From the NCBI GenBank assembly GCA_046594445.1, contig JBKJSM010000075.1:23819-87818 (forward strand): 64,000 nucleotides of DNA, read 5' to 3'. The number at the start of each line of letters is the position of its first letter. Within the stretch, counting starts at the first letter, position 1. Source of the DNA: Gaiellaceae bacterium (GTDB lineage Bacteria > Actinomycetota > Thermoleophilia > Gaiellales > Gaiellaceae). The notes beneath the pieces are model-generated. The model saw only the letters and a program-made list of their open reading frames with translations, was not told the origin of the DNA and ran no database searches. This document shows positions 11,825 to 36,059 of this stretch, one piece after another. The translations under genes and the position numbers were made by a program.

Positions 11825-12786
<962 letters not shown>

Positions 12787-12950
12787 AGTGTCTCCTGAGG
12801 TGATGTTGCCCTGTTCCTGACGAGCGAAAAGCAAGCCAGGCTAGGACGCAGGGAGCGGCCGTAGCTGCTGCTACGGCCGCGACTGAGGACGACGCATGGC
12901 GCCGCTTTGCAGCCGTAAGGGACAGAGATGACATTGCCTCAGGAGACACT
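12787..12950 (-). repeat. structured intercistronic element, copy A (coaBC|moxR)
   Basis: 14-bp perfect inverted arms (12787-12800 and 12937-12950). Core AGGACGCAGGGAGC (12843-12856), a 9-bp hairpin (12857-12878), then GCGACTGAGGACG (12879-12891). Both core blocks are identical to those at 19936-19983. Confidence 0.8.

Positions 12951-16912: not shown

Positions 16913-16935
<23 letters not shown>
16255..16935 (-). CDS. pyrK: dihydroorotate dehydrogenase electron-transfer subunit
   Basis: From the internal ATG at 16935 ([24 protein letters not shown]...). FAD/NAD-binding fold and a C-terminal 2Fe-2S motif [11 protein letters not shown]...C. Confidence 0.85.
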
Positions 16936-19876
<2,941 letters not shown>

Positions 19877-20047
19877 CGGTGTGCGCCTCCTGGTGACGTT
19901 GCCGCGGCGCTCGCGGTCGGAAAGCGAGCGAGCCAAGGACGCAGGGAGCCCCCATGCTGGTAGCACGGGGGCGACTGAGGACGCCGGATCGCGAAGTCTT
20001 TCCGGGCGCGAGCGACTCGGAGGACGTCGTCAGGAGGCGCACTTAAC
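19877..20047 (-). repeat. structured intercistronic element, copy B (carA|carB)
   Basis: Arms 19881-19892 and 20031-20042 are 12 bp perfect, then a 2-nt internal loop, then 5 more bp. Core blocks 19936-19949 and 19971-19983 are identical to copy A. The central hairpin 19950-19970 has a different sequence, with a G-U pair only on the minus strand. Confidence 0.8.
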
Positions 20048-21067
20048 CTCCCGGACCCAGCGCTCGATTATCGGCCACGCGTCGTGAGGCCCAGGTCCTG
20101 CCTCGGGATGGAATTGCACCGAGCGGGCGCGCAGCTCCGGGAAGTCGAAGCCCTCGACCGTGCCGTCGTAGAGCGAGACGTGCGTGGCCTCGGCGTCGTC
20201 GGTCGGCGCGACGGCGAAGCCGTGATTCTGGCTCGTCACGAGCACGCGGCTCTGCTTGCGCTCCACCACCGGGTGATTCGCGCCGCGATGGCCGAACGGG
20301 AGCTTGAACGTCTGGTGGCCGGTCGCGAGGCCGAGCAGCTGGTGGCCGAGGCAGATTCCCAGGACTGGGACACGCCCGAGCAGGTCGCGCACGACCTGCA
20401 CCTCCTGTTCGAGCGGCTGCGGGTCACCGGGGCCGTTCGGGAGCACGACCGCGTCGTGGCGGGCGAGCTCGTCCGCGTCGACCGTGTGCGGGAAGACGGT
20501 GACGTGGGCTCCGGCGCACGCGAGCCGGCGCAGGATCGAGGTCTTGACGCCGTAGTCGACGACCGCGACGCGGATCTCGCCCCGGTCGGCGTACACGTAG
20601 GGCTCCGGGGTGGAGACGAGCTCGACCAGAGCAGAGCCCTCCATCGGCGGGAGAGCCCGCACTGCGGCCAGCGCCTGCTCCTCGTTTACGCCGCCGGCGA
20701 CCGCCGCTGCGCGCATCGCGCCGCCGTCGCGCAGGTGCAACACGAGCGAGCGCGTATCGACGCCGGTGAGGGCGACGACCCCGTGCTCGGTCAGCCAGTC
20801 AGTCCATTCAGGCCCCCGCGCCTCGCGCATCAGCACCGCCTTCGCGTGCGCGGACGACGACTCGGCGCGGCCGCCCGAGACGCCGTAGTTGCCGATCATC
20901 GGCGCCGTGAAGCAGACGAGCTGCTCGGCGAAGCTCGGATCGGTGACGGTTTCCTGATAGCCGGTCATCGCCGTCGTGAAGACGGCCTCGCCGTAGGCCA
21001 CACCGTCCGCGCCCACCGAGTCGCCGCGAAAGATCGTGCCGTCCTCGAGCGCCAGGAAGCTGCTCAT
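20030..21067 (-). CDS. carA: carbamoyl-phosphate synthase small (glutaminase) subunit
   Basis: 345 aa: ...FTTAMTGYQETVTDPSF..., catalytic GICLGHQLL, and ...QNHGFAV. Confidence 0.96.
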   Translation of the reverse strand: MSSFLALEDGTIFRGDSVGADGVAYGEAVFTTAMTGYQETVTDPSFAEQLVCFTAPMIGNYGVSGGRAESSSAHAKAVLMREARGPEWTDWLTEHGVVALTGVDTRSLVLHLRDGGAMRAAAVAGGVNEEQALAAVRALPPMEGSALVELVSTPEPYVYADRGEIRVAVVDYGVKTSILRRLACAGAHVTVFPHTVDADELARHDAVVLPNGPGDPQPLEQEVQVVRDLLGRVPVLGICLGHQLLGLATGHQTFKLPFGHRGANHPVVERKQSRVLVTSQNHGFAVAPTDDAEATHVSLYDGTVEGFDFPELRARSVQFHPEAGPGPHDAWPIIERWVREVKCAS

Positions 21068-25199: not shown

Positions 25200-25218
25200 G
25201 TGGAGGCGCGAATCAGAG

Positions 25219-25250
25219 GCTCTCGGGGCCGGTCTGCCGGCCCCGAGAGC
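25219..25250 (-). terminator. strong hairpin (I-shaped terminator candidate) after the secreted hydrolase-like gene
   Basis: GCTCTCGGGGCCGG-tctg-CCGGCCCCGAGAGC, a 14-bp perfect stem, sits 13 nt downstream of the stop at 25263. No clear U-tract. Confidence 0.55.
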
Positions 25251-25262
25251 GTCATGCTGCTT

Positions 25263-28949: not shown

Positions 28950-29022
28950 GCGCCCGTAGCTCAGGGGATAGAGCGCACGCCTCCGGAGCGTGAGGTCGGA
29001 GGTTCGAATCCTCCCGGGCGCA
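28950..29022 (+). tRNA. tRNA-Arg (anticodon CCG)
   Basis: Manual cloverleaf: acceptor GCGCCCG/CGGGCGC, D arm GCTC/GAGC, anticodon stem CACGC/GCGTG with loop CUCCGGA, T arm GGAGG-TTCGAAT-CCTCC, discriminator A. Confidence 0.92.
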
Positions 29023-35986: not shown

Positions 35987-36059
35987 GCGGGTGTAGCTCA
36001 GTTGGTAGAGCATCAGCTTCCCAAGCTGAGGGTCGTGGGTTCGAGTCCCATCGCCCGCT
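35987..36059 (+). tRNA. tRNA-Gly (anticodon CCC)
   Basis: Manual cloverleaf: acceptor GCGGGTG/CGCCCGC (one G-U pair), D arm GCTC/GAGC, anticodon stem TCAGC/GCTGA with loop UUCCCAA, T arm GTGGG-TTCGAGT-CCCAT. Confidence 0.9.

Follow-up and report, generated by a model that had tools for sequence, protein, structure and literature searches.

Why should one palindrome of 162 nucleotides (nt) hold the stop codon of an operon gene in its 5' arm and the Shine-Dalgarno (SD) sequence of the next gene in its 3' arm? The question is raised by a 64,000-nt stretch of the genome of a Gaiellaceae bacterium of the class Thermoleophilia (GenBank assembly GCA_046594445.1, contig JBKJSM010000075.1, positions 23,819 to 87,818 of the forward strand), which as a whole is referred to as the window and in whose own numbering positions are given. 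The palindrome, here termed copy B, lies between carA and carB, which encode the two subunits of carbamoyl-phosphate synthase. It occupies 19881..20042 with its mRNA sense on the - strand, the better-folding strand being the + strand, and a related unit, copy A, is found further along the same gene array. An earlier note on this DNA read both copies as structured mRNA elements and considered a role tied to the neighbouring genes and to PyrR. We arrive at a different answer, to which a probability of about 0.6 is assigned: copy B would be a member of a family of non-autonomous mobile palindromic repeats that spans the Thermoleophilia, that is selected for the folding of one of its strands and that is compatible with residence in operons.

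A hairpin family with a nearly invariant core

On the - strand, the outer 5' arm of copy B, GUGCGCCUCCUGA (20030..20042, read as 20042-20030), gives carA its last four codons (KCAS) together with its UGA stop (20032-20030) and is anti-SD-like by virtue of its CCUCC. It shows perfect 12-bp complementarity to the outer 3' arm, CAGGAGGCGCAC (19881..19892 on the - strand, read as 19892-19881), which carries the AGGAGG now serving as SD sequence of carB and which forms an anti-SD duplex of -10.3 kcal/mol. In the minimum-free-energy fold, the 12 bp are followed by a 2-nt internal loop and 5 bp, exactly as the earlier note had described, and then by a near-continuous hairpin. The same note had placed the AGGAGG 4 nt before the carB ATG (19876-19874); this distance applies to the end of the 3' arm, whereas the AGGAGG itself (19891-19886) is located 9 nt upstream. 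The variable apical hairpin, CCCCGUGC-UACCA-GCAUGGGG (19950..19970, - strand), is framed by two conserved core blocks, GCGACTGAGGACG on the + strand (CGUCCUCAGUCGC in the mRNA) at 19971..19983 and AGGACGCAGGGAGC on the + strand at 19936..19949.

Copy A (12787..12950, - strand; nhmmer E = 6.9e-33) is situated between coaBC and a gene for an AAA/MoxR-like ATPase, which starts with GTG at 12786, and it contains the coaBC stop (12939-12941) inside its 5' arm. Its core blocks, a 14-mer at 12843-12856 and a 13-mer at 12879-12891, are identical to those of copy B; the two copies align over ~160 nt, and their apical hairpins, though unlike in sequence, both pair, so that the observations of the note on these points are borne out. 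In mRNA sense, the fold energies amount to -99.0 to -102.2 kcal/mol for copy B and -89.2 to -90.6 kcal/mol for copy A, with z = -7.2 for each against shuffled sequences. A profile search of the window returned copies A and B only. Two identical short cores alone would be weak evidence of common descent, but the similarity of both copies is beyond doubt because at least 120 further loci share the two cores and the variable spacer between them.

These loci were obtained by scanning one genome per species for the two exact cores separated by a variable spacer, which yielded at least 120 loci with at least 122 copies. Among the loci listed, the carriers are of Thermoleophilia type (Gaiellales, Solirubrobacterales and Thermoleophilaceae), except for one bin labelled Acidobacteriota. 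This metagenome-assembled genome (L007, JBDTXY010000426.1) holds a typical Thermoleophilia-type copy between the genes of S19 and L22, and its label is probably a binning error and not a sign of a second phylum. Complete Thermoleophilia chromosomes (OY970394.1, OY970329.1, OY970171.1 and OY969705.1) are among the carriers. The units come in discrete sizes of ~162-168 nt and, in Solirubrobacterales-type copies, of ~100-110 nt, with boundaries that were determined by X-drop extension of the arms, as RNAfold with long flanks had given spurious ones. A profile search of ~0.92 Mb of flanking DNA added only 7 copies, roughly 10 per Mb, and since the cores of these profile-found copies differ by nothing but a single A>G, core conservation is not a mere product of the search pattern. 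Metagenome scans for the arm variant of copy B gave 0 matches and then 25 chance matches. No description of such a repeat in Thermoleophilia was found in the literature searched, and the element is a previously undescribed mobile hairpin-forming repeat distributed class-wide. Several public contigs (L127, L129 and L130, as well as L004, L027, L033, L049, L062 and L073) stop inside or at the element, as is to be expected of a repeat, which breaks short-read assemblies of Thermoleophilia, core operons included.

The structure alignment of 78 long copies yields a single hairpin of 50 pairs as consensus, with compensatory double changes in 42 of them. The proportion of paired cells is 94.0%, compared with 69.9% in shuffles and 33-44% in slid controls, and the covariation score reaches 0.673 as opposed to 0.219 in shuffles and ~0.10 in slid controls, the observed value being attained by 0 of 500 shuffles. 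The outer helices constitute the most variable part and covary at every position, and all pairs of the apical hairpin (helices 7-8) covary across the family; the terminal sequences differ greatly between subfamilies, with the arms being complementary within each copy. The centre, in contrast, is invariant (columns 74-86 and 118-129), and for one block (at 19971-19983 in copy B) at least 120 loci have the inner 12 bases without a mismatch. The sequence of the centre on the G-rich strand is ...AGGACG-CAG-GGAGC-(variable hairpin)-GCGA-CUG-AGGACG..., and in the folded core the two AGGACG strands are opposed as G-C, G.A, A.G, C-G and G.A around the CAG/CUG helix. This non-Watson-Crick motif is two-fold symmetric when folded and a direct repeat in duplex DNA. 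Each unit is a single long hairpin, with a nearly invariant core inside stems that drift and covary. The covariation noticed earlier between two copies extends to the whole family, and the accompanying statement that conservation acts at the nucleotide and not at the protein level is confirmed; the frames differ between copies.

As to the strand on which this conservation acts, the earlier note had concluded from one G-U pair in copy B that covariation fixes the mRNA strand, and the family shows the opposite. As RNA, the G-rich strand (complementary to the mRNA in most operon copies) is the more stable one in 106 of 109 copies and in 84 of 84 long ones, with a mean fold energy of -103.0 versus -81.7 kcal/mol for the other strand (a difference of about 21 kcal/mol), and its advantage is alike in co-directional, convergent and antisense contexts. 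Throughout the consensus pairs, 326 G.U cells on the G-rich strand compare with 39 A.C cells, the equivalent of G.U pairs on the mRNA strand; in the orthologous carA-carB copies, wobble intermediates number 27 to 2 in favour of the G-rich strand and follow a GC>GU>AU path. Both copies of the window conform to this pattern: the + strand of copy B folds as RNA with -109.3 kcal/mol (z -9.0) compared with about -99 for the mRNA strand, and as single-stranded DNA with -63.0 compared with -56.0 for the - strand, and the corresponding RNA values of copy A are -103.3 for the G-rich strand and -89.2 kcal/mol for the other. A constraint on duplex DNA cannot account for the asymmetry of G.U and A.C cells and of stability. 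Deamination linked to transcription or replication is likewise disfavoured, because an opposite sign and a flip with context would be expected, neither of which matches the data. What is maintained is the folding of the G-rich single strand.

Dispersal, insertion and loss

The 169 flanking proteins of the copies fall into 143 distinct clusters, which means that the sites are not orthologous. Between co-directional genes 36 copies are in sense and 9 in antisense orientation, and a further 16 lie between convergent and 2 between divergent genes. Close relatives of a given copy are found at different junctions. One 8-kb locus (L110) bears three copies on its - strand that are 86% mutually identical and occupy the L18-S5, S13-S11 and S11-S4 junctions, so that S11 is bracketed by elements (core starts 1041, 6026 and 6600 in the coordinates of the reverse-complemented locus). 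It was also considered whether each insertion copies its arms from the target, and this was rejected, as these three copies share their arms at three different junctions and 3' arms do not track polymorphisms of the flanks.

At the carA-carB junction, the comings and goings of the element are visible as alleles. Of the 120 closest CarA homologues, 15 have a ...CAS or ...CVS tail, and the others (about 105) mostly end in ...RDAA. All fetched contigs of the ...CAS type that span the junction are filled (L121, L125, L126 and L128), and contigs of the ...RDAA or ...RCAA type (L122 and L124) are empty, carA and carB overlapping by 11 nt. Altogether three alleles coexist at 99.5-99.8% nucleotide identity of carA: an empty one reading ...GGAGGTACGAG/ATGCCGCGTAG, a filled one reading ...GGAGGTTAA/GTGCGCCTCCTGA... 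and a footprint reading ...GTTAAGTGCG/ATGCCACGTAG. The last of these, present in L132 (2000-2045) with a CarA ending in ...VKCDAT, is a deletion footprint of the element and has exactly the form left by slippage between the 4-nt TGCG repeats that are seen at the two ends of the element in L126 and L128; the tails ...VRCAA (L124), ...VADATA and ...ECNAKA of other homologues may represent further remnants. The filled alleles do not form a clade but are scattered among the empty ones in carA similarity, one of them being 100% identical to an empty allele in the rest of CarA; a neighbour-joining tree was uninformative. In another genome (L093, 2161-2333, - strand), the same junction is occupied by a copy of another subfamily whose 3' arm supplies the carB ATG and its first codons (MKRS, not MPRR), which suggests that the junction was hit independently. 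Because the sites are unrelated and filled, empty and footprint alleles coexist, the element is mobile and not a locus-specific regulator, and the C-terminus of CarA in the window is remodelled by insertion.

Junction anatomy and competing explanations

In about 40 of 62 long copies the upstream stop ends within about 5 nt of the 5' boundary, and convergent downstream genes likewise stop at the 3' boundary. The operon-internal subfamilies, which are always sense-oriented, have ends of the form ...T/AGTGCCCC...GGGGCACT/GATG or TGATG/GCGACC...GATCGC/TAGTG (slashes denoting boundaries), so that the element completes or abuts the upstream stop and itself ends in a stop overlapping the downstream start. 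The 3' arms of operon-internal copies are SD-like, with a mean anti-SD duplex energy of -7.8 compared with -3.6 kcal/mol for random 16-mers. Anti-SD-type 5' arms are nearly confined to co-directional contexts, and GGAGGG 5' arms occur mostly between convergent genes. The opposition of stop and anti-SD to SD that had been deduced from copies A and B is therefore a property of the operon-internal subfamilies, in which the 5' arm carries or abuts the stop and the 3' arm is SD-like, and not of the family at large. Core-operon junctions are confirmed for S19-L22, S13-S11-S4, L18-S5, NusG-L11 and AtpD-AtpC, and further ones (L2-S19, L23-L2, NuoI-NuoJ, PyrR-PyrB, ParA-ParB and HemB-HemL) were read from translations; the same ribosomal-protein junctions are filled in several genomes.

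The earlier note had also drawn attention to an open reading frame (ORF) bridging each copy, in the manner of the mycobacterial interspersed repetitive units (MIRUs). Such frames are real as to their ends: in copies A and B the stop codon occupies nt 12-14 of the downstream gene (a stop-minus-start value of 11), and 18 of 33 co-directional copies have a frame whose stop overlaps the downstream start or abuts it, about 10-12 of them also starting on the upstream stop. The interior is open in 1.4 of 3 frames compared with 1.14 in shuffles, and equally so in non-operon contexts. Selection on the bridging ORF is not supported by this near-chance, context-independent openness, only the terminal stop/start overlaps being non-random, and the frame is a by-product of GC richness and of the terminal codon arrangement.

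The insertion point at carA-carB lies between the ancestral SD sequence of carB (GGAGGT, inside the carA end) and the carB ATG, and the following course of events is proposed. The element would be recognised and moved as folded single-stranded DNA, as its strand asymmetry suggests, and a putative core-binding protein, probably dimeric, would recognise the folded core. At the locus under study it landed in the spacer between SD and ATG of carB, where the genes formerly overlapped by 11 nt, and the insertion is tolerated in that the 5' arm offers carA a new stop after four codons and the 3' arm offers carB a new AGGAGG. Within the mRNA the arms pair. The helix would be opened by ribosomes that reach the end of carA in the 5' arm, the SD and ATG of carB would become accessible, and translational coupling would be kept. 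Selection at the level of the host would favour the orientation that places the weaker hairpin in the mRNA.

Several findings weigh against this proposal. Neither a target-site duplication nor a defined cleavage site was identified; in the near-isogenic pair of a filled and an empty allele no duplication was seen, the right junction not having been recovered. No recurrent transposase or recombinase family emerged among 946 ORFs near copies (~1 Mb of loci), which were clustered and not annotated, and no half-cores flanking a gene were present in ~1 Mb of loci, solo half-cores being chance matches. The strand asymmetry from which a single-stranded DNA intermediate is proposed may also be due to an RNA from the G-rich strand, and the GC skew is too weak for orienting replication. 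Moreover, the five carA-carB copies are 88-96% identical to each other, compared with 55-64% at adjacent third codon positions and 86-91% at first and second positions, and copies at other sites share no more than 73% identity with this lineage. In carA, the near-identical filled and empty alleles are distinguished by only two positions, within about 60 nt of the junction, which fits allelic exchange. The slow divergence could mean either a host-level constraint or recombinational spread of the filled allele. Constraint in place would follow only if the copies stemmed from one old insertion, and the case for purifying selection in place is weakened because the filled alleles are not a clade and some are 100% identical in carA to empty ones. 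Constraint is no more likely than recent spread, whether through allelic exchange or through repeated site-selective insertions.

A more far-reaching claim than that of a mobile, strand-selected repeat family would be that of a new, site-selective kind of mobile DNA, apart from miniature inverted-repeat transposable elements (MITEs) with terminal inverted repeats, from REPINs and from attC sites. A folded single strand with a symmetric purine core would then be the substrate of a putative dimeric recombinase or nuclease, would home to the SD-start spacer or the stop of coupled genes with a stop/SD module of its own, and would have colonised ribosomal-protein, ATP-synthase and pyrimidine operons throughout the class. 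We entertain this claim tentatively and with considerable doubt.

Host-level constraint is central to a further possibility that is compatible with a mobile family, namely that of a domesticated intercistronic module, whose core-operon copies, mobile in origin, would be kept by the host as an RNase III site, as an mRNA stabiliser or as a means of bringing stop and start together for re-initiation. The stop/start junctions of ribosomal-protein, atp, nuo and pyr operons at which copies reside, some of them filled repeatedly among genomes, are what such a module would be expected to occupy, and the carA-carB copies are conserved like non-synonymous sites, have sharp boundaries and exhibit six compensatory stem swaps within their set. 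Domestication is nevertheless judged unlikely, since the empty alleles are the viable majority (about 105 of 120 close carA homologues are without the filled-type ...CAS tail), an allele with a deletion footprint exists, and the slow divergence of filled alleles that form no clade may simply mean youth. In addition, selection on the fold of the mRNA should place G.U pairs on the mRNA strand, which is not where they are.

The surroundings of the boundaries have to be weighed with regard to an ordinary MITE, that is, an internally deleted derivative of an insertion sequence with a DDE transposase (e.g. of the IS630 or IS5 type targeting TA or CTAG) that would be recognised as double-stranded DNA by its terminal inverted repeats and would be found at stops because TA is rare elsewhere in a genome of 70% GC. 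The family is palindromic, non-coding, dispersed and insertion-polymorphic, many of its ends read CTAG/GAGGG...CCCTC/CTAG or TA/GTG...CAC/TA, and TA is present within 4 nt of the boundary in 43-51% of copies compared with 7% at random. The TA excess is inseparable from stop-codon adjacency, though, and the use of TAG by convergent neighbours (22 of 30 stops versus a background of 41%) is an enrichment that is real for these neighbours only. Over all loci, from genomes of ~70% GC, stop usage is 41% TAG, 50% TGA and 10% TAA, a TAG share that is unusually high for high-GC actinobacteria. A double-stranded constraint can yield neither the 326:39 ratio of wobble cells nor the 21 kcal/mol between the strands, variable termini around an invariant interior core are the reverse of a family driven by terminal inverted repeats, no duplication is seen at the best-resolved site, and no parent insertion sequence was found in ~1 Mb of loci; a MITE of this kind is accordingly deemed improbable. 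The earlier note had reserved the name of plain MITE for copies in random orientation and context with conserved termini and target-site duplications. The copies are indeed dispersed and mobile, but their orientation is biased, their termini are not conserved and no clean duplication is apparent.

Much less room is left for the model of that note, a cis-acting structured mRNA element controlling downstream translation or pyrimidine regulation, which we regard as very improbable and which is largely refuted as the family's reason for existing. The layout with a stop in the 5' arm and an SD sequence in the 3' arm is real, the operon-internal subfamilies are always in sense and divergence at the orthologous site is slow; however, it is the other strand that wobble pairs and stability favour, whatever the context and in copies A and B too, copies of the family are found at non-orthologous sites, some of them flanked by convergent genes or lying in antisense, and strains that are nearly identical differ in whether the carA-carB site is filled. 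Searches of both strands of the region against Rfam, at gathering and at permissive thresholds, gave best matches with E values of at least 2.4, far under threshold, and no Rfam match to a PyrR binding site was obtained anywhere in the window despite the pyrR-led pyr operon there. Least probable of all is a small RNA gene, by which the G-rich strand would be transcribed as a ~160-nt hairpin RNA antisense to the operon (a guide, an antisense RNA or a mobility intermediate), for although its G.U, G.A and G.G non-canonical pairs and its purine-rich symmetric core resemble structured RNA, there is no promoter-like or terminator-like consensus in or beside copy B, unrelated coding regions lie upstream of the G-rich 5' end in every copy, so that a promoter would need to be inside the hairpin, and neither strand matches Rfam.

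With respect to the genes around the two copies, carA extends over 20030..21067 (- strand; NCBIfam TIGR01368, 3.2e-114) and carB, encoding the large subunit, over 16913..19876 (- strand; NCBIfam NF003671). According to NCBIfam the gene orders are pyrR-pyrB-pyrC-carA-(copy B)-carB and coaBC-(copy A)-AAA/MoxR-like ATPase, in an array that is co-directional, as had been stated before. The carB frame is open back through the whole of copy B up to the carA stop (stop-to-stop ORF 16913-20029), which is in frame with carB (16913-20032, - strand), the 51 codons of copy B being without any other stop; readthrough of the carA UGA would yield a CarA-linker-CarB fusion, and the same in-frame layout is found in L093. 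Elsewhere in the window, gathering-score matches to Rfam are limited to two tRNA genes (28950-29022 and 35987-36059, + strand), and a gene end at 25216-25253 features an inverted repeat of 17 nt with 94% complementarity and a loop of 4 nt, which has the look of a terminator and is unrelated to the element family.

The movement of small palindromic repeats and their effect on operons are still unsettled, and the Thermoleophilia family offers an unusually clean case: covarying stems surround an invariant symmetric core, the signal belongs to one strand, insertion takes place at stop/start junctions of highly conserved and highly expressed operons, and filled, empty and footprint alleles are found in one population. 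Two questions thereby become testable, namely which protein moves orphan repeats and how translational coupling survives across a hairpin of 160 nt. On the practical side, the repeat breaks metagenome assemblies in core operons of abundant soil Thermoleophilia and changes annotated protein ends, for instance CarA ...KCAS versus ...RDAA.

Relation to known repeat systems

By comparison with known systems, the element works most like co-transcribed palindromic repeats of the Correia and ERIC type, with a resemblance to MIRUs in operons and to attC sites, repetitive extragenic palindromes (REPs) and REPINs in the folding of one strand. Correia elements possess a conserved central part that is thought to bind a host protein. 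The Correia elements (NEMIS/CREE) of Neisseria and the ERIC/IRU repeats of enterobacteria are, like the present family, dispersed non-coding palindromes of 100-170 nt for which no dedicated transposase is known. They lie at the ends of genes and between genes that are transcribed together, become part of the transcripts as long hairpins and display insertion polymorphism (PMC2229807, PMC2759123). The family described here differs from them in that it has no sequence relation, is confined to Thermoleophilia, combines variable termini with an invariant core, has no demonstrable TA duplication, is asymmetric in the folding of its strands and, in some subfamilies, carries stop, SD and start signals.

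The likeness to MIRUs is one of layout and holds for the operon-internal subfamilies only, inasmuch as both are actinobacterial, intercistronic, in sense within operons and provided with short frames that overlap the flanking stop and start. MIRUs are units of 40-100 bp that usually occur in tandem and are not long palindromes. In contrast, the copies described here are single (~162 or ~105 nt) and without tandem arrangement, are fully palindromic, occur between convergent genes as well and have a frame interior that shows no selection.

REPs and REPINs, which are mobilised by RAYT (HUH) transposases, are likewise extragenic palindromes downstream of genes, between unidirectional as well as convergent ORFs; they too fold into long hairpins and are believed to act in the form of single-stranded DNA (PMC3733652). 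They are recognised by two inverted short palindromes and a GTAG or CGTC tag beside the stem, and no transposase has been identified for CGTC-type REPs (PMC3733652). Here, with z values of about -0.2 to -0.3, the arms are not palindromic themselves, and of 84 copies only 6 have GTAG ends. The core contains two CGTC motifs, but these are in direct orientation and separated by 8-9 nt from the apical stem, and at 20-40 nt a REP is far shorter than the unit. As for RAYT genes, no recurrent neighbouring family was detected among the 946 clustered ORFs near copies.

Integron attC sites, 57-141 nt in length and directly downstream of ORFs, are imperfect palindromes that vary in sequence but keep their structure. 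Of their two strands, it is the complement of the mRNA that folds and that, as single-stranded DNA, is recognised. The resemblance is functional only and consists in a structure that is kept with variable sequence and in the folding of the strand complementary to the ORF. Of 84 copies, 1 matches the R'' (RYYYAAC) and R' (GTTRRRY) core sites, conservation is found in the centre and not at the base, copies stand singly by housekeeping genes instead of forming cassette arrays, and no link to an integrase was found. With MITEs, finally, the element shares its length of 100-170 nt, its non-coding nature (the frames differ between copies), its dispersal and its presence/absence polymorphism at carA-carB, but not family-wide conserved terminal inverted repeats. 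Membership among MITEs with terminal inverted repeats and target-site duplications, among REP doublets and among attC sites thus failed on variable termini around an invariant core, with no duplication shown, on non-palindromic arms and on missing R''/R' sites, respectively, and the element is best filed as a new variant within the small palindromic mobile repeats.

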